From: an uncultured Candidatus Saccharibacteria bacterium
GTDB taxonomy: Bacteria; Patescibacteriota; Saccharimonadia; Saccharimonadales; Saccharimonadaceae
Length of the DNA: 64,000 bases
Reading direction: 5' to 3'
NCBI GenBank assembly: GCA_964368785.1
Contig: CAYJCW010000003.1
Location: 71,704 to 135,703, forward strand
Every line of letters starts with the position of its first letter. Within the stretch, counting starts at the first letter, position 1. The notes under the pieces are model-generated. The model did no database searches, was not told where the DNA came from, and saw only the letters and a list, made by a program, of their open reading frames with translations. Shown here piece after piece: positions 27,817 to 57,994 of this stretch. The translations under genes and the position numbers were made by a program.

Positions 27817-30800
27817 ATGGCAAGTACTAACGGTACCAACACCAAGCGTGTGTTCTTTACGAGCGACGACAACGCGCTTCCGCTCCCTAACTTAATACAG
27901 CACCAGCGCGACAGCTGGAAAGAATTCGTTGAAACGGGTCTTGGCGAAATTTTTGCCGAATTAAACCCCATCGATGATTACACTGGTCAAAAGCTTGCCC
28001 TTCGTTTTGGCACATATGCATTTCAGGAGCCAAAGCATGCTGAAGTATTCGCAAAAGAAAACAACCTTACCTTTGATGCGCCGCTTCACGCAACGGTTGA
28101 ACTTACCAATAAAGTGACTGGTGAAGTAAAAGAGCAAGAAATCTACCTGGGCGACTACCCATGGATGACTGATCGCGGCACCTTTATTATTAACGGCACC
28201 GAACGTGTGGTTGTTTCACAGCTTATTCGCTCGTCCGGTGTGTTCTTTACTGCTGACCGTGCGGGTGTTCGTAACAACTACGGAGCCAAGCTTATCCCAG
28301 GCCGTGGTGCATGGCTCGAATTCGAAACTGCCTCAAACGGTACCATTTACGTAAAAATCGACCGTCGTCGTAAACTGCCTGTAACAACACTTTTCCGTGC
28401 ACTTGGCTACAACAAAACCAGCGAAATTAAAGACCTCTTCGCTGATGTTGACACCGGTGAAGTAAAGTACCTCGACGCAACCCTTGAAAAGGACCCAGCT
28501 CGCGGTACAAACGAAGCCTTGATTGAGGTCTACCGCCGCCTTCGCCCGGGCGACCTTGCCACTGTTGATAACGCTAAGCAAATGATTGAGCGCATGTTCT
28601 TTGATTTCAAGCGCTTCGACTATTCACGGGTTGGTCGCTACAAGCTTAACCAGCGCCTTGGCCTTGACGTTGCAAACACGGCCGAAAACCGGGTGTTCCA
28701 ACTGAGCGACCTTATTGCGATTGTTAAAGAGATTATTCGTCTTAACAACACCCAAGAAGCCCCAGACGACATCGATGCACTCTCGAACCGCCGCGTGAAG
28801 CTGGTTGGTGAGCTGGTGGCTCGCCAATTCCGCGTTGGCATGCTCCGTATGCAGCGTAATGCAATGGACCGCATGTCAATGTCGGACCTTGAAACCGTTA
28901 CTCCCTCACAACTTATTAATGCGCGCCCTGTTGTTGCTGCGGTTCGTGAATTCTTCGCCAGTTCCCAGCTTTCGCAGCTTATGGACGAGACCAACCCACT
29001 TGCAGAACTTGCACACAAGCGCCGCCTCTCATCAATGGGCCCCGGTGGTCTTTCGCGTGAGCGCGCTGGCTTTGATGTGCGCGACGCCCACCCAACGCAC
29101 TATGGCCGCCTTTGTTCGGTTGAAACGCCTGAAGGTGCAAACATTGGGCTTGTACTTAACCTTGCCGCTTACGCTCGAGTGAACGAGTATGGGTTTATTG
29201 AAACGCCTTATCTTAAGGTTAAAAACGGTAAAGTAAGCGACGAAGTTGTTTACCTTGATGCTTCACAAGAAGCAGTTGAAGTCATTGCCGATGCTGGTGC
29301 CGAACTGAATGAAGACGGTACCTTTAAAGACGAACGGGTTTCGGCGCGCAACGAACTTCTTCCTGAGCAAGTCGATGCCAGCGAAGTTACCTACATGGAC
29401 GCTGCCCATAAGCAGATTCTTGGTTCAACCGCAGCGCTTGTGCCATTTGTTGAAAAGAACCGTGTTGACCGCTCACTCATGGCGTCAAGCATGCAAAAGC
29501 AGGCAGTGCCGTTGCTTCAGCCAGAATCGCCAATTGTTGGTACCGGTATTGAGCACCTCATTGCTGAAAACACCAGCCAATTGGTGGTTGCCGAAGGTGA
29601 TGGTGAAGTTATTCGCGCTGATGGCGACGTGATTGAAGTGAAGTATAAAGAAGGGGTGAAAACGTACGAACCTGTACACTTTGTAAAGTCAAACGACGAC
29701 CGTTCTATTAACCAAAAAGTTCGGGTAACACGCGGCCAAAAAGTAAAGCAGGGCGACATTCTCATTGAAGGCGCTTCTGTTGCCGATGGCGAGATCGCTC
29801 TTGGTAAGGACCTTCTCGTAGCCTTTATGCCATGGTCTGGTTACAACATGGACGACGCAATCGTGCTTTCGCGCCGCCTCGTTTCTGACGACACGCTTAC
29901 GAGTGTGAACATTAAAGATTACACGGTTGAAGTGCGTGAAACCAAGCTTGGTCCAGAAATTGTCACTCGCGATATTCCAAACGTTTCCGAAGAATCACTT
30001 CGCCACCTCGACGAAAACGGCATTGTACAGCTTGGTTCTGAAGTGAAGGCTGGTGATGTACTCGTTGGTAAGATTACACCAAAGGGTGAGCAAGAACTCA
30101 GCTCTGAAGAGCGCCTTCTTCGTGCAATCTTCGGTGAAAAAGCCAAGGACGTTCGTGATACTTCACAACGTATGAACAACGCTGGTGGTGGCAAAGTTGT
30201 AGGGGTAAAGATTTTCAGTCGCGAAAATGGTCACGAGCTTAAGGCTGGTGTGCTGATGCAAATTCAAATCTTCGTTGCACAGCTTCGAAAGATTTCGGTT
30301 GGTGACAAGCTCGCCGGCCGTCACGGTAACAAGGGCGTTGTGGCACGGATTCTCCCTGTAGAAGATATGCCATTCCTTGAAGACGGTACGCCAGTTGATG
30401 TGGTCCTGAACCCGCTCGGTGTGCCAAGCCGTATGAATATTGGCCAGCTCTTTGAGACGCACCTTGGTATGGCTGCGCGCGCGCTTGGCTATAAAGTGGC
30501 AACGCCACCATTTAACGGTGTTCCAGACGCGGTCATCTCTGAAGAGCTTGAAAAAGCCGGTTTCGCCCGTGATGGTAAAAGCCAGCTCTTCGATGGCCGT
30601 ACCGGTGAAGCCTTTGAGGAACGAACCACTGTTGGTGTTATGCACATGCTGAAGCTCCACCACATGGTAAGTGACAAGATTCACGCCCGTTCAACCGGTC
30701 CATACACAATGGTTACCCAGCAGCCACTTGGTGGTAAGGCGCAAAATGGTGGTCAGCGCTTTGGTGAGATGGAGGTTTGGGCCCTTGAAGCATACGGTGC

Positions 30801-31185
30801 AGCCGCAACTCTTCAAGAAATGCTTACTATTAAGTCTGACGATGTTTATGGCCGGGCTAAGGCTTACGAATCGATTATTAAGGACGAACCAATTGTTGGT
30901 CCAAAACTCCCTGAGTCATTTAATGTGCTTGTAAAGGAACTTCAAGGCCTTGGGCTACGGGTTGACCTTATGGACGAGAGCGAAGATGCAATTGTTGATG
31001 CCGAGCATGTCATTGGAAGCGTTATTAATGGCCAACCGGTTGCCGCTTCGGCAATTGGCCTTGATGAAGACGATGATACTCCAACCGTCCTTGATGAAGC
31101 CGATGAACTGGGTGACATTACCGAGGAGGATGGCATGACTATCCAAGATATTGATGAAATTGAAGAAATTAAGGAGGAGGCGTAA
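27817..31185 (+). CDS. rpoB: RNA polymerase beta subunit
   Basis: INGTERVVVSQ, GDKLAGRHGNKGV, GQRFGEMEVWA. Confidence 0.99.
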   Translation: MASTNGTNTKRVFFTSDDNALPLPNLIQHQRDSWKEFVETGLGEIFAELNPIDDYTGQKLALRFGTYAFQEPKHAEVFAKENNLTFDAPLHATVELTNKVTGEVKEQEIYLGDYPWMTDRGTFIINGTERVVVSQLIRSSGVFFTADRAGVRNNYGAKLIPGRGAWLEFETASNGTIYVKIDRRRKLPVTTLFRALGYNKTSEIKDLFADVDTGEVKYLDATLEKDPARGTNEALIEVYRRLRPGDLATVDNAKQMIERMFFDFKRFDYSRVGRYKLNQRLGLDVANTAENRVFQLSDLIAIVKEIIRLNNTQEAPDDIDALSNRRVKLVGELVARQFRVGMLRMQRNAMDRMSMSDLETVTPSQLINARPVVAAVREFFASSQLSQLMDETNPLAELAHKRRLSSMGPGGLSRERAGFDVRDAHPTHYGRLCSVETPEGANIGLVLNLAAYARVNEYGFIETPYLKVKNGKVSDEVVYLDASQEAVEVIADAGAELNEDGTFKDERVSARNELLPEQVDASEVTYMDAAHKQILGSTAALVPFVEKNRVDRSLMASSMQKQAVPLLQPESPIVGTGIEHLIAENTSQLVVAEGDGEVIRADGDVIEVKYKEGVKTYEPVHFVKSNDDRSINQKVRVTRGQKVKQGDILIEGASVADGEIALGKDLLVAFMPWSGYNMDDAIVLSRRLVSDDTLTSVNIKDYTVEVRETKLGPEIVTRDIPNVSEESLRHLDENGIVQLGSEVKAGDVLVGKITPKGEQELSSEERLLRAIFGEKAKDVRDTSQRMNNAGGGKVVGVKIFSRENGHELKAGVLMQIQIFVAQLRKISVGDKLAGRHGNKGVVARILPVEDMPFLEDGTPVDVVLNPLGVPSRMNIGQLFETHLGMAARALGYKVATPPFNGVPDAVISEELEKAGFARDGKSQLFDGRTGEAFEERTTVGVMHMLKLHHMVSDKIHARSTGPYTMVTQQPLGGKAQNGGQRFGEMEVWALEAYGAAATLQEMLTIKSDDVYGRAKAYESIIKDEPIVGPKLPESFNVLVKELQGLGLRVDLMDESEDAIVDAEHVIGSVINGQPVAASAIGLDEDDDTPTVLDEADELGDITEEDGMTIQDIDEIEEIKEEA

Positions 31186-31187
31186 CT

Positions 31188-34100
31188 ATGTCACGTGTCG
31201 TAATTAACAGCAACAATGGCATCGCTGACTTTGACGCTATTCGTCTTAGTGTCGCCAGCCCAGACGATATTCTCAAATGGAGCTACGGTGAAGTCACAAA
31301 GCCTGAAACAATTAACTACCGTACCCAAAAACCTGAGCGCGATGGTCTTTTTTGTGAGCGAATTTTCGGTCCAGTAAAAGACATTAATCCCCACGATTCA
31401 AAGCTCAAGGGTGTTCGTTCGCGTGAAGCAGCTGTCGATAAAAACGGTGACCTTGTTACTAAGGCAATCGTGCGCCGTGAGCGTATGGGGCACATTAGCC
31501 TTGCCGCACCAGTTGCACACATCTGGTTTATGCGCGGTACCCCAAGTGCAATGTCACTTCTCCTTGGCATTACCGTTCGCAACCTTGAGCGTATTGCTTA
31601 CTTTGCGACGTATGTTGTGCTTAAGGTAGACGAAGAAGCTCGTGATAAGTTCCTTGCTGACCTTGAAGCTGAAACTGAAGCTGGCCGTGCAGCAATCAAG
31701 ATTCATTACGAGAAAGAGGCCGAAGCAGAAGGTGCCGACGTAAAAGCACTTGCCGAAGCCCAAACTCGTGAGCTTGAAGATCTTGAAGAAAACTACACTA
31801 CCAAAAAAACCCAACTTGAAAGCCTCAACCACAGTGCGCTTTTGAGCGAGGTAGACTATCGCAACCTTCCTGAGGAATATCAAGACATTGTTGAAGTTGG
31901 CATGGGTGGCCAAGCACTTAAGGCACTCCTTGATGGTATTGACCTTGATGCGCTTATTGCTGAGCTTACTGAAGAAGTTGAAGGTGCGAAGGGCCAGCGC
32001 GAGAAGAAGCTCCTTAAGCGTCTTAAGATGCTTGAGGGAATGCAATCTGCTGGTATTCAGCCAAGTGCGCTCACTCTTACGGTTCTTCCGGTGATCCCTC
32101 CGGACCTTCGCCCGATGGTGCAGCTTACCGGTGGTCGTTTTGCAACCTCCGACCTTAACGACCTTTACCGCCGTGTGATTAACCGTAACAACCGTTTGAA
32201 GAAACTGGTTGAGCTTAACGCGCCTGAGGTGATTCGCCGCAACGAAATGCGTATGCTCCAAGAGGCAGTTGACGCACTCGTTGACAACTCAGCCGCTCGT
32301 GGTGGTCGTGCAGTCAACGCGACTGGTGGCCGTCGCCGCCTCAAGTCAATCTCTGACATGCTTAAGGGTAAGCAGGGTCGTTTCCGCCAGAACCTTCTTG
32401 GTAAGCGTGTTGACTACTCTGGTCGTTCAGTGATTGTGGTTGGTCCTAAGCTTAAGATTAACGAATGTGGTCTGCCGAAGCAAATGGCGCTTGAGCTCTT
32501 CAAGCCATTCGTTATCAGCTGGCTTATTCGTGGCGAGCATGCGCACAACATCCGTTCGGCAACTCGTCTGATTGAAGCTGGCGAGGCGATCGTTTGGGAT
32601 GCGCTTGATGCCGTCATTGAGGGCAAATACGTGCTGCTTAACCGCGCACCGTCACTGCACCGTCTTTCGATTCAGGCCTTTCAACCGCGTCTTGTTGAAG
32701 GTAAGGCTATTCAGCTTCACCCGCTCGTAGCGAACGGCTTCAACGCCGACTACGACGGTGACCAGATGGCCGTTCACCTTCCACTATCACGCCAGGCACA
32801 GCAGGAAGCTCGCGAGCTCATGAGCGCAACAGCTAACCTTCTAAAGCCAGCGGATGGTGCGCCGGTCCTTTCGGTTGCCCAAGACATCGTACTTGGTAAC
32901 TATTACCTCACGTACAATAAGGCAAGCGCACAAACCGATGTGGTAAAACCCTATAGCTCAGTATACGAAGCCGAGATGGCCTATGATAGCGGCATGATAC
33001 AGCTACAGACCCCCATTCGTGTATTTGCAAAGGGTGAGATTCGCAACACTACGCTGGGTCGCGTCTTCTTTAACGAAATTCTTCCAAAAGAATACCCGTA
33101 TGACGACAATCCCCAGAACAGCAAGCAGCTCAAGAAAGTATTGAACGACATATTCCTTAAGTATGGCGCTGAAGTAACCGCAAAGACGGCTGACCGCATG
33201 AAGGGGCTGGCCTTCCGCTTTGCAACTGTTTCTGCTGTATCAACCAGCAAGGATGATTACGTTCACTTTGAAGAGACCGATGAGATGATTGCTGAAGGTG
33301 ACGCGAAAACGACACTTATTAGCGAACAGTATGACCAAGGGCTCATTACCGAAGAAGAGCGATACAACCTTACTATTGCCAACTGGCGTGGAGTAAGTCG
33401 CAACATCGAGGCATTTCTCAAAGAAAAGCTTAAAGACATGGATACGAGCGTATCGGTAATGGTTAACTCTGGTGCCCGTGGTAACATTTCAAACGTCGTG
33501 CTTGCAAGTGCCATGATTGGTATTATGGTCGACGCTGCGAACCATCAGATCGAGCTTCCGATTCGTTCAAGCTACAAAAAGGGTCTCTCAAGCCTTGAAC
33601 AGTTCGTGGCAACACGAGGTTCACGCAAGGGCTTGATTGACACCGCGCTTAAGACGGCCGATTCAGGATACCTTACTCGTCGTCTGGTTGACGTTTCTCA
33701 GGATGTGTTTACTGTTGAAGACGAAGCTGGTGATGATGACGGATTCACTATCTACCGTGCTGAAACCGAGCTTACAATGATCGACTTCGGTAATCGTCTC
33801 TATGGACGCTACGCCGCTGAAGACATTGCGGGTCACGTGAAGAAGAACGAGCTCATTACTCGTGAAATCGCGAACGCAATTGAGGATGACCAAGACATTA
33901 CCGAAGTAAAGATTCAGTCTGTGCTTTCAACTAAGAACCTTCGTGGTGTGCCACGCCGCAGCTACGGGATTGACATGTCGACTAACCAGCTTGTGGCTGA
34001 TGCGCAGCCAGTTGGGGTGATTGCCGCTCAATCTGTTGGTGAACCGGGTACTCAGCTGACACTTAATACCTTCCACAAGGGTGGTGTGCAGGAAGGTGAC

Positions 34101-35042
34101 ATCACCCAGGGTCTCCCTCGTGTAGAAGAGCTCTTTGAAGCTCGTAACCCGAAGGGTCAAGCATACATCACTGAAGTAACGGGTGTCGTAGAAGCTTGGG
34201 AAGATGGCAAGAAGTATGTGGTTCAAGTCACTCCAGAAGCTGGCCATATTGAGCGCATTCCGCTTGAAGGCCGCGTGGCGAATGTCAAGAACGGCGCAAA
34301 CGTTAAGGTGGGTGATGTTCTTGCGAGTGGCGAAAGCGAAAGCAAGCCAATCGTTTCACCATTCGATGGCGTCGTTGAAGTAACCGAAGACCACCTCGTA
34401 CTTGCAGCAAACGCTGGTTCGCCAGTTCGCTACGAAGTTCCTGGTACGATGCAGCTATTGGTAAAGAGCGGTGATGTTGTTGAAGCTGGTGACCGCCTTA
34501 CTAGCGGTTCACTCAACCTCCACGACCTCATGCGCCTTAAGGGTATTGAAGCAACGCAGCGGTACATCATTAACGAAGTGCTCCGTATTTACGCGGCGCA
34601 GGGTCAAGATGTTGCCGACAAGCACCTCGAGATCATCGTTCGCCAAATGTTCAGCCGTGTTCAGGTTGAAGACCCAGGTGACAGTACATTTGTTACTGGC
34701 GACATCGTCTCTCGTGCCGCAGTTGTTGAAGCAAACGACAAGCTCGCTACCGAAGGTAAAGAGCAAATTGCTTACACTCAATTGCTTCTTGGTATCACTA
34801 AGGTGTCGATCTGGTCTGACAGCTGGCTTTCTGCCGCATCATTCCAAGACACGACCCGTGTGCTTATCAATGCAGCCGTCAGTGGTCGCTCAGACACCCT
34901 TCACGGCCTTAAGGAAAACGTGATTATTGGTCGCAAGATTCCTGTAGGAACCGGTGTGCACAGCGCAACTGCACTTGACACACTTGAGGGTGATGGGGAA
35001 GTTGAGGCGGATATCGCTGAAGCTATTGAGCTGGCTGCCTAG
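31188..35042 (+). CDS. rpoC: RNA polymerase beta' subunit
   Basis: [37 protein letters not shown]. Confidence 0.99.
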
Positions 35043-35094: not shown

Positions 35095-35108
35095 ATATAG
35101 TGTTAATG

Positions 35109-36122
35109 ATGAACCAACTTAACTATGATGCGCTCACGGCACCATTGACCAAACAAGACCTGCGAAATTATACAGCAAGCAGGGGAGCTGCGGGTGTAGT
35201 CGGTAGGTTTTTTGCAGGGTTTGTCGTTATCGTTGGGGTGGTCGTGCTAATAAGCATGGCAGTAGTAACGATGAATGCTATTCGTCTTGGTGACGCGCCT
35301 GGGCGGGTGGGCTCGTTTGTTGGTATCAGTATTCCCATAGTCATTGCTCTTGTGATTGCCTTCTCGGTGCGGGCAGAAACTCGGCGGCTGGCTCGCTTGT
35401 ACAAATTTTCGCAGATGAACGGTATTACTATGGCCGTGAATACACCCGGTGCGCCGTACGACGGCCTGATATTCAACCAAGGCCATAGTAAACGGGTGCG
35501 GTTGGCACTATCGTTTCCGGGTGATATAGAAGTGGGGAACTACGAATATGTCACCGGGAGCGGAAAAAGCCGCACAACGCATACGTGGGGCTATGTTGCT
35601 GCCAAGCTCCCTCGGCGTTTACCTCATATGGTACTCGATGCTAAGAAAAATAACTTCTTTGGTACCTTTAGTAACCTGCCAGCTGGATTCGGTAAAGATC
35701 AAGTGCTTCATCTGCAGGGTACTTTTAGTGATCATTTTACCCTTTACGCCCCAAAAGAATACGAGCGGGATGCCTTCTATGTGTTCACCCCAGATGTTAT
35801 GGCGGCGCTTGTTGACGCTGGCGGCCGGTATGATATAGAAGTCATTGACGATATGATTTTTCTGTATGCCCATCTCGGTATGAAAATGGATACCGAACAG
35901 CATCTCCGAGATCTTCTGGCAATCACCCAGCGTATAAAAGGTGAGCTTCATGACCAGACCGACTATTATACCGACGAGCGAGTGGGTGATAGGGCACTCA
36001 ATAGCATTGCCACTCCAGGTCGTCGGCTTAAGTCGCGCCTTGCCTGGTCAACGGTTGTGATGCTCATCCTTTTTATGCTCTATGCCGCCTGGATGATTAT
36101 TTCGAATATACTTTCACTGTAA
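35109..36122 (+). CDS. hypothetical membrane protein (three TM helices)
   Basis: Two N-terminal TMs, F...F.LY-type soluble domain, C-terminal TM. Confidence 0.75.
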   Translation: MNQLNYDALTAPLTKQDLRNYTASRGAAGVVGRFFAGFVVIVGVVVLISMAVVTMNAIRLGDAPGRVGSFVGISIPIVIALVIAFSVRAETRRLARLYKFSQMNGITMAVNTPGAPYDGLIFNQGHSKRVRLALSFPGDIEVGNYEYVTGSGKSRTTHTWGYVAAKLPRRLPHMVLDAKKNNFFGTFSNLPAGFGKDQVLHLQGTFSDHFTLYAPKEYERDAFYVFTPDVMAALVDAGGRYDIEVIDDMIFLYAHLGMKMDTEQHLRDLLAITQRIKGELHDQTDYYTDERVGDRALNSIATPGRRLKSRLAWSTVVMLILFMLYAAWMIISNILSL

Positions 36123-42783: not shown

Positions 42784-43425
42784 ATGGAGCAATTTTTATA
42801 CGAACGACCACGCGAAAAACTACAACATCGGGGTGCTAGTTTTTTAACTGTGCCAGAGTTGCTGCAAATTGTTATTGGCTCGGGGACGGCCAAAGTTTCA
42901 GGGGCGCGTCTTGCAAAGCGGGCTGCAAAAATGCTTGACTCCCAGCCGCCCATGTATGCAAACCTTCGGGCAATAGAGGGGTTGGGCCATGCTAAAGCTT
43001 GCCAAATTCTCGCCGCGCTCGAGCTTGGGGCGCGGTATGCCAAAGCTGCTTCCATGCCTGTTCGGTCTTCTGCCACCCCCGCTTCGGCACTCGTGGCTGC
43101 GGCTCGCAGCGGTGCCCCGCAGGGCATTGTCGCTTGTTTTTATGATGGGTCCGCTGCAATCATTGAAACAGTCCGCTATCAGGGCGGCTCATCGGCACAT
43201 CTTGCACACGCCCAGAAAAGCATTCTCAACGATGCATTTAGGGTGTCGGCACATGCTGTCGAGCTCGCAGTAAAAGAGGCCAAGGGGGCGTTGTACCCGA
43301 GCCATCAGCTCCTTGCCTTTACTCGGGCGCTTGCAACGGTGTTTGGCTACTTCCAGGTTAAACTCATCGATGTTTGGGGCGTCACCAAAACCGAAAGCCG
43401 CTCTTACCGCAAGGAGCTTCCCTAA
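42784..43425 (+). CDS. RadC/UPF0758-like protein with degenerate JAB domain
   Basis: RPREKL...ELLQIVIGSG, HhH GLGHAKA..I.AALELG; no HNHPSG motif. Confidence 0.75.
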   Translation: MEQFLYERPREKLQHRGASFLTVPELLQIVIGSGTAKVSGARLAKRAAKMLDSQPPMYANLRAIEGLGHAKACQILAALELGARYAKAASMPVRSSATPASALVAAARSGAPQGIVACFYDGSAAIIETVRYQGGSSAHLAHAQKSILNDAFRVSAHAVELAVKEAKGALYPSHQLLAFTRALATVFGYFQVKLIDVWGVTKTESRSYRKELP

Positions 43426-44078
43426 TGGAAGGCAGCGGTTTACATACGCCACCGTTTGGCGTGCGCCGCGTGCTCCATTGGTACGAAAAAGCGCATATCG
43501 ATTACGCAGTACAGTATATGCATCTTTACGTTGCCTATAACGCGTGGTACAAAGAGGCGACGGGTGAGGTAAGCGACAGGGAAGCGATTAATAAGCTCAA
43601 GCGCCGTTATGTACTGTGGGCCGATTATTGCGATGGCAAAACCCTGCAAAGCCTTCGCCCCTACATGAAGCGCCTCGCCGAAGCAACCCAGCGGCACCCC
43701 GCCAAACGGGGGCTTAATACTCACTGGAATGGGGAACTTGCCAACGATGAAGACTGGCGTTCACTTATTGAATACTGGTATACCATCCGCTGCCTCATTG
43801 TTCATGGCGAAGAGGTACAAGAAGACGATGCATTTTATGCGTATGAAACACTATCCCTTTTCATGGGCGAGCTGATTGCAAGAATGCGGGCCTGCATGGA
43901 ACGCTTTGACCCACGGGATGTACGGCAACTGTCGCAACTAGCCGAAGAAGACGACCGACGGTCAGCCAGGTTTGTGAACCTGCAACGAAAACTCTACCTT
44001 GCCTATGTAGCCAGCCCTGATGTGTGGCAGGTCGATATGCAACCTGTAGCTGACGAAAAAGGGGAGTGTTCATTATAG
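43425..44078 (+). CDS. putative HEPN-domain protein
   Basis: LYVAYNAWY and IRCLIVHG (Rx4H); the ATG overlaps the upstream TAA. Confidence 0.65.
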   Translation: MEGSGLHTPPFGVRRVLHWYEKAHIDYAVQYMHLYVAYNAWYKEATGEVSDREAINKLKRRYVLWADYCDGKTLQSLRPYMKRLAEATQRHPAKRGLNTHWNGELANDEDWRSLIEYWYTIRCLIVHGEEVQEDDAFYAYETLSLFMGELIARMRACMERFDPRDVRQLSQLAEEDDRRSARFVNLQRKLYLAYVASPDVWQVDMQPVADEKGECSL

Positions 44079-53109: not shown

Positions 53110-53703
53110 ATGGCGAAACCAGCCACTCATACCGCTCCTCGCCTGAAAGCCTTGTATAGCGACACGTTCGCCAAGGAACTTCAAGCCGAACTCGGTCTCG
53201 AAAACATCAACCAGGTTCCAAAGCTTGAAAAAATTATTGTCAGTGCAGGAATTGGTAAAAATAAAGATGACAAGCAGCACTATGAAGTAGTGCGCAATAC
53301 CATCACTAAAGTAACCGGCCAGTCACCCGTTGACCGTATGGCTCGTAAGTCAATTGCTGGCTTTAAGATTCGTGCCGGCATGAACCGAGTAGGTATTAAT
53401 GTCACCCTTCGGGGTGCTCGCATGTACGAGTTTCTTGACCGCCTTGTCAACGTGAGCCTTCCCCGTGTTCGTGACTTCCACGGCATTAGCAATAAGGCTT
53501 TCGACAAGGGCGGTAACTACAACCTTGGTATCGTTGAGCAATCGATTTTCCCAGAGCTCACTTTTGAAGAAACGCAGCGTGCACACGGCCTTCAAATTAC
53601 CTTCGTTATTAAGAACGGAAGTAAAGAAGCAAGCAAGGCCCTGCTTGTGAAATTCGGTATGCCGTTTGAAAAGGAAAGCAAGAAAGAAGGAGGCGCACGC
53701 TAA
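53110..53703 (+). CDS. rplE: 50S ribosomal protein L5
   Basis: [16 protein letters not shown]. Confidence 0.98.
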
Positions 53704-53972
53704 TGCCTAAAGTATCTGCAATTGCTCGCGACGAAAAGCGTAAGAAGATGATTCAAAAATACGCTGCTAAGCGGGCTGAACTAAAAGAACTTGGCGACCT
53801 TGATGGCCTTCAAAAGCTACCTCGGAATAGCTCGCCGACTCGCTGGAAGAACCGCGACGCGCTTCATGGCCGCCCTCATGGGTACATGCGCCGCTTTGGT
53901 TTGAGCCGTATTAACTTTCGAGAAAAAGCATCGAAGGGTGAAATCCCCGGTGTAACTAAGAGTAGCTGGTAG
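53703..53972 (+). CDS. rpsN: 30S ribosomal protein S14, zinc-independent C- form
   Basis: [23 protein letters not shown]; no Cys. Confidence 0.96.
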
Positions 53973-54442: not shown

Positions 54443-56887
54443 TTATTGTTTCCCCGCCTCTTTTTGCTGCGTATACCCACATCCATACCAAAAGTTGCTA
54501 CACCCATAAAATTCACCATTCGTACCACTGCGCATAATAAGGTATCCGCTATGGCAGGCTGGACAACGTGTCTGGCTCTCCTTGTTTTCGGGCTCAAGCG
54601 GGTCTAGGTTGAGTTCATCGACAAATGGTGATGGATTGTGCTCTGTGCAAATAATCGTCGTCGAAAGTTTTGCCCGGGTAAGCGCTACGTAAAAAAGACG
54701 GCGCTCTTCTGCGTTTGGGTACTCGTCTTTATGAGCAAGCAATAGGTGAAGGACAGGATCATCTTCTCGCATGGCTGGTATGCCCCTTGTACCACCGTTG
54801 CCGTTAAGGATAAACGCATAATCACAGGTTAACCCTTTCGAGGCATGCATGGTCATGAACTCGAGCGTCAGGCGAAAGCCGGTTCGTGTATCGGTCCATT
54901 CAACCATCGTGCCCATTTCATTAAGGGCACGGAATTGCAGACGAGGGTCTTGGTAGCCAAGAAGACGCTGAATATCATGCTTATAGCGGCCAATGAGAAA
55001 AATTGTCCTATGTCGTAGACCGTCTGTTCCTACAGTATCAATAAGTCGCTGGAGTTCCTCGCCAAGCGCGGTCGCATCATTATCCAAACCTGCCGTGCGG
55101 TTAACGGCTAATTTTGTCGTGGCAGGAAGTGTACTGTAGGGATTTTTTTGCACCTGCGAAGAGTTCTTCGTAATAAATGTGGTTGTCGCGCCAAGGAGCG
55201 GATTGTTAAAGCGGTGCGTTTGCTCAATAACGCTATGGCGAGTTGTGCGGGCGAATCGTTTCTCAAAATCGTTCAGCAATGTTAAATCGCTCCCGGCAAA
55301 GCGGAAAATAGATTGCCAGTCATCACCAACGGCAAATAATTTTGAGCGAGGGTTGCGGTCGAGAAGTGCTCTTAGGAGCCGGTATCGCGCGCCGGAAAGA
55401 TCTTGTACTTCATCAACCAAGATATAGTCATACTCCATTACGCCGGCTGGAAGCAACGGAAGCGTCTGCGCTGCGGTAACGATCATATCCGAAAAGTCGA
55501 TTGCATCAGCTTCTTGAAGTGAGGTCTCGTATAGTTCATAGATTTCTTCAAACAAAGCAAGAAAAGCATTCGTTCTGGCGCGCTGATAAACGTTTGGCAG
55601 TTCATGAAGACGCTTTCGAATGGTGGCTAGGCTAAATTCACTGGTTTTTAATAATCCAAGAAAAGAAATGAGGAGTGTATTAAATGCTGCCACCTCTGTG
55701 CTGTATGATTGATGAATAAGGGCGGCAATTTCTGACTCTTGTCGACGAATAATATGCACACCTTGAGCCTTCAGGCGTTTTTCGAGATTTTGAAGAACGG
55801 TTCCCTCTTGAAATTCATAACTAAACGTTTCAATAAGGCGCGTGCCGCCCTGACTATGATACTCGCGGTTCCATTTCATTTTACGGCGATAGTATTTGTA
55901 GTCTATATCAGGACGCGTTTTTCCTTGACGATTAATACCCTGATGCTCAAGATAGACAGGTTCTTTATATTGAGTAATAGTGAAATCGGGTTTGTAATTA
56001 CTATTTCCCGGAAAAGGCTTTTCATATTCGTAAGGAATAGAATTAATAAATAAGAAATTTGCAATAATTTGCTCTTCTTTTGAACGCACCCTCTCGCCGT
56101 GGTAGGTTTGCTTGTCTTGAGAGTAAGTACTTTTGTTCATCGACACGGGTTTTAGCGTATGAGTTTGAAAGACCCGGTTTCTTTGGACAAGCTCCTCAAG
56201 GGTCTTTACTTCAATGGGCGGTGTAGGCATCGAGAAGTAATTGAGAATATAGTCATTATAACGCCGCGCAAATGTCTCGCTATTTTCTATGCGGTCTTTA
56301 ATAATCTCGGTAAGCATAGCTTGCTGTTGAGTTTGGCTGACAACTTTGGCTTTCTTACCTAAAATGGTATTTCCAAGCGCGTGAAAAGTCTTGCCATCGA
56401 CAGCAATACCTAGCCTCTTAAGCCGCTCGGCAAGTTCATCAGCGCTTGCTTTGGTGAACGAAATAGTTAAAATACGCGCTGGGTTAATATGGAGTTCCTC
56501 CACAAGGTATTGGCACTTGGCAAGCAGGCTCAGTGTTTTACCACTCCCGGCTGCTGCCATAACGAGCTGCGCATCTTCAGTGGCTACGACGGCTTCGATC
56601 TGTTGGGCATCAAGGGGGCGCCCCTCTATAATAAAAGGCCGTTGCTGGGCAGCGGCAATTACCTTTTGGTTATGAGTCTGGCGCGTAGATTCGCTCCCAA
56701 GACGGTATGCCGCTCGCCTCGCCGCAGCGGTTGCTATAAACGAAAGGGGATGATGAAAAAATGCGCGTAAAGAGTGCGCTGCGGTGGGCTGAGGCGAGCG
56801 TGCCTCGGCAAGTTCTGAGAAACTAATAAATCGCTCGGTAGCATAAAGCTTTTGGAGTGCATCGGTGGGAGGGGGTGTAAGGGGCAT
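54443..56887 (-). CDS. UvrD/helicase IV-like SF1 helicase with nuclease-like insert and C-terminal topoisomerase-type Zn ribbon
   Basis: AAAGSGKT, ILVDEVQD, VGDDWQSIFRF, HASKGL, EERRLFYVALTRAK; YEYE...YKPDF...EHQG insert; CPAC...CSNF..C. Confidence 0.88.
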   Translation of the reverse strand: MPLTPPPTDALQKLYATERFISFSELAEARSPQPTAAHSLRAFFHHPLSFIATAAARRAAYRLGSESTRQTHNQKVIAAAQQRPFIIEGRPLDAQQIEAVVATEDAQLVMAAAGSGKTLSLLAKCQYLVEELHINPARILTISFTKASADELAERLKRLGIAVDGKTFHALGNTILGKKAKVVSQTQQQAMLTEIIKDRIENSETFARRYNDYILNYFSMPTPPIEVKTLEELVQRNRVFQTHTLKPVSMNKSTYSQDKQTYHGERVRSKEEQIIANFLFINSIPYEYEKPFPGNSNYKPDFTITQYKEPVYLEHQGINRQGKTRPDIDYKYYRRKMKWNREYHSQGGTRLIETFSYEFQEGTVLQNLEKRLKAQGVHIIRRQESEIAALIHQSYSTEVAAFNTLLISFLGLLKTSEFSLATIRKRLHELPNVYQRARTNAFLALFEEIYELYETSLQEADAIDFSDMIVTAAQTLPLLPAGVMEYDYILVDEVQDLSGARYRLLRALLDRNPRSKLFAVGDDWQSIFRFAGSDLTLLNDFEKRFARTTRHSVIEQTHRFNNPLLGATTTFITKNSSQVQKNPYSTLPATTKLAVNRTAGLDNDATALGEELQRLIDTVGTDGLRHRTIFLIGRYKHDIQRLLGYQDPRLQFRALNEMGTMVEWTDTRTGFRLTLEFMTMHASKGLTCDYAFILNGNGGTRGIPAMREDDPVLHLLLAHKDEYPNAEERRLFYVALTRAKLSTTIICTEHNPSPFVDELNLDPLEPENKESQTRCPACHSGYLIMRSGTNGEFYGCSNFWYGCGYTQQKEAGKQ

Positions 56888-56896
56888 GCGGTGTCT

Positions 56897-57388
56897 CTAA
56901 AAGGTCAAGCTATCTATTTCTTGCTGAATGGAGTGAAGCTCGTGCTCCATGGCCTGACTGCGCTGTTGCTCTTGCTGGTCGACCTCGTGTTGAAACTGCC
57001 CAAGCTGTTCGTCAAGCTGCCGAATTGTATTGGGGTCTTGTGCGTTTTGCCGTTGGCGCTCAAGGTCGCGCCGTTTTGTTCGCATATCGGCTTCAAAATG
57101 TGCTTTATCGTTCTGGAAGGTGTTCCGCACGCTTGCCTGCTTTGCGTGAAGGCGGTCAATGTACGTGTGCGTATCTTGAATTTGCTGTTTGAGTGCCGCG
57201 ATATCTCGTTCGAGCTGTGCTTTATGGTCTTTCTCGCGGCCTAGGTACCCACCAACGGCGGCGCCAAGAAGAGGGTTTTTAGTAAGCGCTGCTCCGATGC
57301 CCGCTCCGGTAAGCTTATTACCGACCGACTCAAGTTCCCGTTCTTTTTCGTGTAAACGGTCTTCTAGCTTTTGGATACTTTCTCTCAT
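56897..57388 (-). CDS. glycine-zipper plus coiled-coil protein
   Basis: GAGIGAA...GAAVGGYLG; Q/E-rich heptads; GGAGG RBS. Confidence 0.75.
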   Translation of the reverse strand: MRESIQKLEDRLHEKERELESVGNKLTGAGIGAALTKNPLLGAAVGGYLGREKDHKAQLERDIAALKQQIQDTHTYIDRLHAKQASVRNTFQNDKAHFEADMRTKRRDLERQRQNAQDPNTIRQLDEQLGQFQHEVDQQEQQRSQAMEHELHSIQQEIDSLTF

Positions 57389-57430: not shown

Positions 57431-57994
57431 CTATGTCGGACTCTTTTTTACGGCGTTAGCAAGTGTATCACCGATTGCATTGCCATATATTGAGGCAGGA
57501 ATATGGTTGCTCATAGTGCCAATAACGCTGAGCCTACCAAGCTGGTGCGATGCACTCATGAAGTGGGACCCATAACGAAAGGCAACTTCATAGGCCTTGC
57601 TAAGCGGCGTACGCTTTTCGGGGAGTGCGGTGTACATAATGCGTGCCAAAGCGTGGGTCCACAGGTAATAGGTGTCACCAGCGGCATCCTGGTAAGGCAC
57701 GGTATCGCTGGTAGATTTTGCGGCAGTGAGCGACGCCTGCCATTCACGCATAAGAGTGAGTGCCGTATCTTCTGACATGTGCGGTAGGCCATCAATGGCA
57801 GGGGAATCTCTCCATCGGGCAAAATGCCTGCTGGCAATAAATAAGTTCCACACTGCAGAAGGTATAGTCGGGGCGTGTTCAAGAGCAAGTCGCAGTTGTT
57901 CTGATGGCGTAACGGGCCCGTGCTTTGCTTGGTCGATAATTGCTTCGTGTAGGCTATCAACAACTTCGTAAGGGGTAGACATTGCCGTGGCCAA
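57431..57994 (-). CDS. hypothetical protein, start uncertain
   Basis: 187-aa ORF; the frame stays open well upstream without ATG/GTG/TTG. Confidence 0.55.
   Translation of the reverse strand: MATAMSTPYEVVDSLHEAIIDQAKHGPVTPSEQLRLALEHAPTIPSAVWNLFIASRHFARWRDSPAIDGLPHMSEDTALTLMREWQASLTAAKSTSDTVPYQDAAGDTYYLWTHALARIMYTALPEKRTPLSKAYEVAFRYGSHFMSASHQLGRLSVIGTMSNHIPASIYGNAIGDTLANAVKKSPT

Follow-up and report, generated by a model that had tools for sequence, protein, structure and literature searches.

The 64,000-nucleotide stretch that we analyzed (here called the window) comes from an uncultured Candidatus Saccharibacteria bacterium of the order Saccharimonadales (assembly GCA_964368785.1, contig CAYJCW010000003.1, positions 71,704 to 135,703). 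It contains rpoC, which encodes the β′ subunit of RNA polymerase on the plus strand (31188 to 35042). Directly upstream on the same strand lies its operon partner rpoB, which encodes the β subunit (27817 to 31185), as judged by reading the translation by eye. We found that rpoC is the single match in the genome (901 kb, 8 contigs, 99% complete) and that this sole copy adjoins rpoB, which ends at 31185, with rpoC starting at 31188.

We compared the predicted protein with β′ chains of solved structure using phmmer and found that more than 100 of them match RpoC at E = 0 over residues 12 to 1258. Close homologs of RpoC carry the domains PF04997, PF00623, PF04983, PF05000, and PF04998. The catalytic motif reads NADYDGD (residues 519 to 525) and retains the aspartate triad of NADFDGD, and N519, A520, D521, D523, G524, and D525 do not vary within the clade. 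Only two Cys residues occur in the whole protein, C56 and C427, and neither is at a ligand position. Both zinc-site hallmarks of the RpoC family, the N-terminal Cys4 and the second Cys4 before AAQSxGEPG, are absent. RpoC lacks this near-universal zinc feature and is clearly a member of the family by descent nonetheless.

The sequence would be an artifact if the gene were a pseudogene, if the contig were misassembled, or if a functional rpoC lay elsewhere as a second copy. We regard this explanation as practically negligible. The frame is intact over its 1,284 amino acids, there is one copy in a genome that is 99% complete, the catalytic motif is present, and hundreds of assemblies made independently contain this type of sequence.

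The two zinc sites of β′

In Escherichia coli β′, the zinc ligands are C70, C72, C85, and C88 at the first site and C814, C888, C895, and C898 at the second, without which the subunit does not fold and assemble properly. To our knowledge, both sites are regarded as universal and essential. The first site modulates termination and antitermination, and it is where put RNA, Q proteins, and Rho dock (PMC9378689, PMC9908020). The RNA-binding domain of Rho (PF07497) was not found in the source genome, to which this search was confined.

To place the ligand positions, we aligned RpoC with the solved chains 8i23_D and 7l7b_D. The Cys-less counterpart of the N-terminal zinc-binding domain (residues 64 to 91; 31377 to 31460, plus strand) aligns without a gap, 28 residues against 28. 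The four site 1 Cys residues of the solved chains fall, with no insertion or deletion, on P68 (31389 to 31391), D70 (31395 to 31397), V83 (31434 to 31436), and N86 (31443 to 31445), and the length of the N-terminal segment is unchanged from that of the zinc-binding forms. Within the order, mean column identity is 0.94 over residues 64 to 91 versus 0.81 over the whole protein. In an alignment of 52 sequences that takes in the most divergent Cys-less clusters, D65, I66, N67, P68, R77, R79, A82, D84, G87, V90, and T91 show no variation. The domain also retains the basic residues of its tip: K72, K74, R77, R79, and K85 align with K, K, R, K/R, and K of the zinc-binding forms. The same basic tip surface grips put RNA in E. 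coli (PMC9378689). Because conservation reaches 0.94 and the basic tip is kept, the N-terminal domain appears to have been re-engineered rather than abandoned. The alignments indicate that the replacement at site 1 is kept under purifying selection, that is, that it is functional.

At site 2, the Cys of E(T/D)DCG aligns with A847 (33726 to 33728, plus strand), so that the usual EDDCG reads EDEAG (residues 844 to 848). The three Cys residues of SVLTCxxxxGVCxxCYG fall on T915 (33930 to 33932), P922 (33951 to 33953), and S925 (33960 to 33962), all on the plus strand and all held in a 17-residue segment (residues 911 to 927). Conservation of this region is 0.73 to 0.79, below the average for the protein. 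No sequence of the order that we aligned (n = 12) retains ligand 3 or ligand 4, and all four ligands are gone in the genus of the source genome. Relic Cys residues persist in the order at ligand 1 (3 of the 12 sequences) and at ligand 2 (7 of the 12). Site 2 seems to have been lost, not redesigned, with a decay that proceeded in steps.

Four unrelated clusters defined at 50% identity (P0174, P0175, P0185, and P0211) also lack site 2. They resemble the source β′ in the replacement of the site 2 Cys residues, often by the same residues, with convergent changes of the form GxS/TxxSYG. They differ from it in that the N-terminal Cys4 is intact. We concluded that the loss of site 2 alone is recurrent in bacteria.

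Canonical β′ chains (8i23_D, 7l7b_D, and 6kon_D) and the source β′ are alike in domain order, in length through both sites, and in the basic tip, at about 45 to 50% identity. They differ in that the canonical chains have Cys4 zinc sites, whereas all eight ligand Cys residues are replaced in the source β′. An earlier note on this DNA had quoted strings of β′ over 31353 to 33968, which corresponds to residues 56 to 927, and had claimed that the Cys residues of both zinc sites are missing and that the polymerase is apparently zinc free. The quoted strings are present exactly, and the gap-free alignment bears out the first claim at every ligand position. With invariant Pro and Val at site 1 and Ala, Thr, Pro, and Ser at site 2, the predicted zinc-free polymerase is well supported too.

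The note had also raised the possibility that His, Asp, or Glu residues rebuild the metal sites. Zinc or another metal might still be bound through His, Asp, Asn, or Glu, as H69, D70, E80, and D84, most of them near-invariant, are found within or close to what was site 1. However, the sequence speaks against it. At site 1, the first and third ligand positions hold an invariant Pro and an invariant Val, and the fourth varies among N, E, K, Q, and S in the Cys-less clusters. H69 is replaced by Asn in two families and by Phe in cluster P0126, D84 is no more conserved than in the zinc-binding forms, and the Ala, Thr, Pro, and Ser of site 2 include no candidate ligands. These residues make it very unlikely that a metal site has been rebuilt. 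We therefore rejected a rebuilt His/Asp site, with its invariant Pro and Val and its variable fourth position, and we consider it highly improbable that either former site still holds a metal.

Distribution of the Cys-less β′

The earlier note had proposed an alignment of RpoC across lineages. We read the locus across the phylum, across the class, and across sequence clusters and found that site 1 is Cys-less in the order and has four Cys residues in the families outside it. In a draw of 301 genomes from the phylum, searched with a 64-amino-acid query, complete matches from the order were 78 to 100% identical, and all others were at most 66% identical. We read the segment in 30 of these genomes and found KDINP(H/N)D...DKNGE in the order (14 genomes) and CxC...CxxC outside it. 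In a draw of 151 genomes from the class, all 46 genomes of the same order, which represent 16 families, were Cys-less and at least 78% identical to the query, and the rest were at most 64% identical. The segment was readable in 19 of the 20 other families of the class (one genome each), and all 19 keep the four site 1 Cys residues. Two class outgroups (G209 and G288) have a full-length RpoC with all eight Cys residues.

Within the order, site 1 is Cys-less in all 30 loci that we compared, drawn from the genus and from nine other families. The segment is almost invariant across these loci, while overall RpoC identity drops to 63 to 66%. A degenerate DNA pattern for FGPxKDINPHD matched at least 119 species records. 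Nearly all the listed records are labeled Saccharibacteria, Saccharimonadales, Saccharimonadaceae, Saccharimonas, Nanosynbacter, or Nanoperiomorbaceae; some have generic names, and three have odd labels. The three (L263, L288, and L299; DATMTU010000041.1, DATLRC010000006.1, and JAIROX010000005.1) are labeled Dongiaceae, Dormiibacterota, and Nomurabacteria, respectively, and encode an RpoC that is 62 to 91% identical to the source RpoC. They are probably mislabeled or mis-binned Saccharimonadales DNA.

We also surveyed the representatives of the 150 best clusters at 50% identity. The site 1 ligands read CCCC in 139 of the 150 and CCCE in one, which may be an alignment shift, and in 6 the region was absent or too weakly aligned. 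Cys-less ligands were found only in four clusters, all of the Saccharimonadales type. This distribution, with 139 of 150 clusters unchanged and the Cys-less state confined to four clusters of one type, is not chance variation. The loss of site 1, and the loss of both sites together, was seen only in this type. We concluded that the Cys-less state is an ancestral trait of the whole order that was fixed on the order stem.

A full-text literature search, which included a 2024 survey of β/β′ architecture (PMC11515920), found no description of a Cys-less β′ in the texts covered, which is no proof that none exists. The Cys-less β′ is a variant of a familiar enzyme that a whole lineage shares.

Other zinc proteins and the order of loss

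Makarova, Ponomarev, and Koonin reportedly distinguished, in 2001, Cys-containing (C+) and Cys-free (C−) forms of the ribosomal proteins L31, L33, L36, S14, and others. Paralogs of the two forms that are regulated by Zur have since been reviewed (PMC6103462, PMC9825181). RpoC resembles the C− proteins in that its ligand Cys residues are replaced and in that the Cys-free version of a zinc ribbon or knuckle keeps its function. It differs in that the source β′ is constitutive and the sole copy, without a zinc-binding paralog to switch with. RpoC and L36 were changed in place, whereas the C− forms of S14 and L31 differ in length. We found no coexisting C+ paralog under a Zur switch in the source genome, which holds one rpoC and single C− forms of S14, L31, L33, L36, and L28; a Fur-family regulator is present.

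The earlier note had suggested a census of C+ and C− ribosomal proteins and had named a C− S14 in particular. In the source genome, S14, L31, L33, and L36 have no Cys, and L28 has one; each is encoded by a single copy. S14 is encoded by rpsN (53703 to 53972, plus strand) and is the 89-amino-acid C− form, as identified by a match to PF00253 and by its sequence. L32 (PF01783) was not found in this 99%-complete genome.

We then compared the same proteins, and several others, in genomes inside and outside the order. L36 is Cys-less in 12 of 12 genomes of the order; outside, it has the C3H form in 16 of 16 readable outgroups and in all 5 genomes of the sister families f148, f151, and f157. L31 is C− in 12 of 12 genomes of the order and has Cys4 in 18 of 18 outside it. 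RecR has lost three of its four Cys residues in 10 of 10 genomes of the order and keeps all four in 18 of 18 outside. S14 is the 89-amino-acid C− form throughout the order (12 of 12), a long C− form in the sister families, and a 61-amino-acid Cys4 form in the other 16 outgroups. The CHC2 site of the primase DnaG is lost in 10 of 10 genomes of the order and in three sister families; it is kept in 5 other genomes of the class and in 10 of the phylum. L33 is C− in 11 of 12 genomes of the order and in both class outgroups, and it has Cys4 in 14 others. The DNA ligase LigA is mosaic, with its site kept in 4 of 10 genomes of the order, 2 of 8 of the class, and 8 of 8 of the phylum. Two of these proteins show individual departures. 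The L33 of G191 (L139) has three of its four Cys residues and may represent an intermediate state. The L36 proteins of G243 and G303 (L115/L116) carry insertions of 8 to 9 residues, and two Cys residues lie within the insertion of G243.

These states form a series in which L33 changed first, at the class level, S14 and the primase changed next, in the order and its sister families, and RpoC, L36, L31, and RecR changed last, on the order stem. We concluded that structural zinc sites in the core machinery were replaced one step after another and that the change in RpoC came late. It counts against this conclusion that the sequence of events was derived from kinship labels and from character states held in common rather than from a rooted tree.

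The replacement is not a genome-wide purge. Pairs of CxxC-like motifs persist in 20 open reading frames (ORFs), and Cys clusters are kept in LeuRS, UvrA, DnaJ, Fpg, PriA, RadA, the Fur-family regulator, a prepilin peptidase, a serine-recombinase ribbon, and a UvrD-like helicase encoded in the window. We considered whether only abundant proteins lose zinc and rejected this, because the low-copy RecR and primase lost their sites and DnaJ keeps its own.

One protein that the earlier note had counted toward zinc sparing did not hold up as such. A RadC-like protein with a UPF0758_N match and a weak JAB match (42784 to 43425, plus strand) does lack the HxHPSG/JAMM metal motif, as the note had said, and reads LAVKEAKG where HxHPSG is expected. 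The missing motif looks like the inactivation of a JAB enzyme domain rather than an instance of sparing. An overlapping partner of 234 amino acids, encoded at 43374 to 44078 on the plus strand, has no Pfam match.

Several other features of the genome were seen in passing. A UvrD-type helicase of 814 amino acids (54443 to 56887, minus strand) has an intact C-terminal C4 zinc ribbon of the topoisomerase type; its gene comes immediately after rpsN and rpsH of the ribosomal protein cluster, is oriented opposite to them, and is followed by two unannotated ORFs (56897 to 57388 and 57431 to 57994). LeuRS, a protein of 988 amino acids encoded outside the window (G000:C1:6766-9732, L061, minus strand), carries a NUDIX domain (PF00293, E = 2.5e-12, residues 413 to 539) that is inserted just after its editing domain. 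Between rpoC and the next ORFs, a predicted membrane protein of 340 amino acids (35100 to 36122, plus strand) is Cys free and has no Pfam match.

These losses may have been driven by zinc economy or by a need to protect thiols from oxidation, or they may reflect the neutral ratchet of a reduced genome. The earlier note had seen in the Cys-less polymerase a sign of systematic zinc sparing. The pattern part of that claim stood and was widened by the losses in L36, L31, RecR, S14, DnaG, and L33. The idea of a systematic program did not fare as well, as many Cys clusters are kept and importers are no different. We searched for the zinc importers ZIP and ZnuA: 8 of the 12 order genomes and 15 of the 18 outgroup genomes had a match to one or the other, and this comparison gives no sign that a shortage of zinc was the cause. 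ZIP alone was found in 7 of 12 genomes inside versus 10 of 18 outside, and ZnuA in 1 of 12 versus 5 of 18. Neither ZIP (PF02535) nor ZnuA (PF01297) was found in the source genome with these Pfam models. We rejected importer loss as a correlate, since the order and the outgroups do not differ, and zinc economy as the cause of the site losses is unproven.

A second explanation is that the driver was hardening against oxidants and thiol stress, or a general economy of Cys, rather than of zinc. Cys4-zinc sites are oxidant labile, and a lineage without strong thiol buffers that lives on aerobic hosts would gain from their removal. Consistently with this, Cys makes up only 0.63% of the source proteome, and the importers are no rarer in the order, which weakens a pure zinc shortage. 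Cys content was 0.61% in the order versus 0.82 to 0.96% outside it, but the sample is small, at about 3,000 residues per genome, and the spreads overlap. The Cys residues of RpoC that are not ligands are not reduced, which contradicts a general purge of Cys: class outgroup proteins have 10 to 11 Cys residues, 8 of them ligands, versus 2 in the source RpoC. Moreover, UvrA, DnaJ, Fpg, PriA, and RadA are among many proteins that keep their Cys4 sites. We hold this explanation possible but on the doubtful side.

Alternatively, the sites may have been lost without benefit, by drift in small populations with reduced genomes, once other contacts had made zinc dispensable. Such a neutral ratchet would fit the stepwise and partly mosaic pattern (LigA and the L33 of G191), the slow decay of site 2 with its relic Cys residues and below-average conservation, and the independent losses of site 2 in four unrelated clusters that kept site 1. 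It fits less well with the finding that at least four independent proteins changed on one branch, after all these sites had persisted in hundreds of other Patescibacteria lineages whose genomes are just as small. The new N-terminal sequence is also strongly constrained. We consider drift alone unlikely.

Proposed folding and function without zinc

Taking the substitutions and the conservation of the sequence together, we consider it very probable that RpoC is a functional, sole β′ that works without either structural zinc ion. In such a subunit, the N-terminal element would still line the RNA exit channel and touch nucleic acid. The two zinc knuckles of site 1 may have become self-forming tight turns, N67-P68-H69-D70 and D84-K85-N86-G87, and the zinc staple of site 2 may have given way to ordinary packing. 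N-P-H-D and D-K-N-G are strong autonomous turn formers, through an Asx-Pro turn and an Asn-Gly type I′ turn, respectively. We found that Pro also stands in for the first Cys of the CxxC knuckle of site 2 in the genus and that the CxxC of L36 has become SPDD.

Two known systems are comparable. The LID of adenylate kinase has a Cys4-zinc site in many Gram-positive bacteria and a hydrogen-bond network of His, Ser, Asp, and Thr in E. coli. As in the source β′, a structural Cys4 knuckle was swapped in place for polar residues, and fold and function were retained. Adenylate kinase differs in that it is a small monomeric enzyme whose replacement has been demonstrated structurally; in β′, a network of this kind is a prediction. 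The second system is an engineered Thermus thermophilus polymerase in which residues 57 to 80 of β′ were replaced by AAA (PMC9908020). With its zinc-binding domain deleted, this enzyme is still made, assembles, and releases RNA with Rho (PMC9908020). It resembles the source polymerase in that the core assembles and elongates without a zinc-bound N-terminal domain, and its activity makes a polymerase without such a domain biochemically plausible. It differs in that it is a laboratory deletion whose second site is intact, whereas the source β′ keeps a full-length domain and has no zinc ligands at either site.

Several points weigh against a zinc-free β′ with a self-folding N-terminal element. 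The absence of zinc is predicted from sequence. H69, D70, and D84 might act as weak ligands. The turns, and the new acid-base pairs that may help them (D70, E80, and D88 with R77 and R79), are likewise proposed from the residues themselves. Modeling with AlphaFold, another proposal of the earlier note, gave a good clamp and low confidence in the element at issue. With an alignment of Cys-less sequences only, residues 1 to 1200 had a pLDDT (predicted local distance difference test) of 64.7, and residues 1 to 105 were below 50. With a mixed alignment, residues 1 to 350 had a pLDDT of 86, and residues 61 to 90 were at 50 to 74. Judging from these models, the zinc-free element could be a flexible loop. 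The model of residues 1 to 350 matches mycobacterial β′ (Mycobacterium tuberculosis 6kon_D is among the solved examples) with a template modeling (TM) score of 0.75.

The model also contains a two-helix insertion at about residues 148 to 212 (31629 to 31823 of the window), with helices at residues 149 to 179 and 185 to 211. Mycobacterial and Streptomyces chains align straight through this region, and Clostridial and Bacillus chains do not. The insertion looks like the clamp insertion of actinobacterial β′.

A large natural clade lacks both sites and is clearly under purifying selection, so neither zinc site is intrinsically required for a working β′. We give about an even chance to the wider proposal that the whole order runs transcription, translation, priming, and RecR repair without structural zinc, that the ordered replacements ended with the polymerase, and that its β′ folds independently of zinc. 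If this is true, zinc-independent folding and assembly of β′ contradicts what work in model organisms had held to be impossible. The Saccharimonadales, including the cultivable oral Nanosynbacter, would then be a natural system for studying what the "universal" zinc sites of the polymerase are for. The Cys-less segment is a ready-made sequence solution for grafting, and some members of the order grow in coculture. The finding is also a warning for annotation and for metalloproteome predictions that assume these zinc sites. This is a rare lineage in which the order of metal-site loss across the core machinery can be read, and it is relevant to elemental economy, to oxidative robustness, and to the evolution of reduced epibiont genomes.

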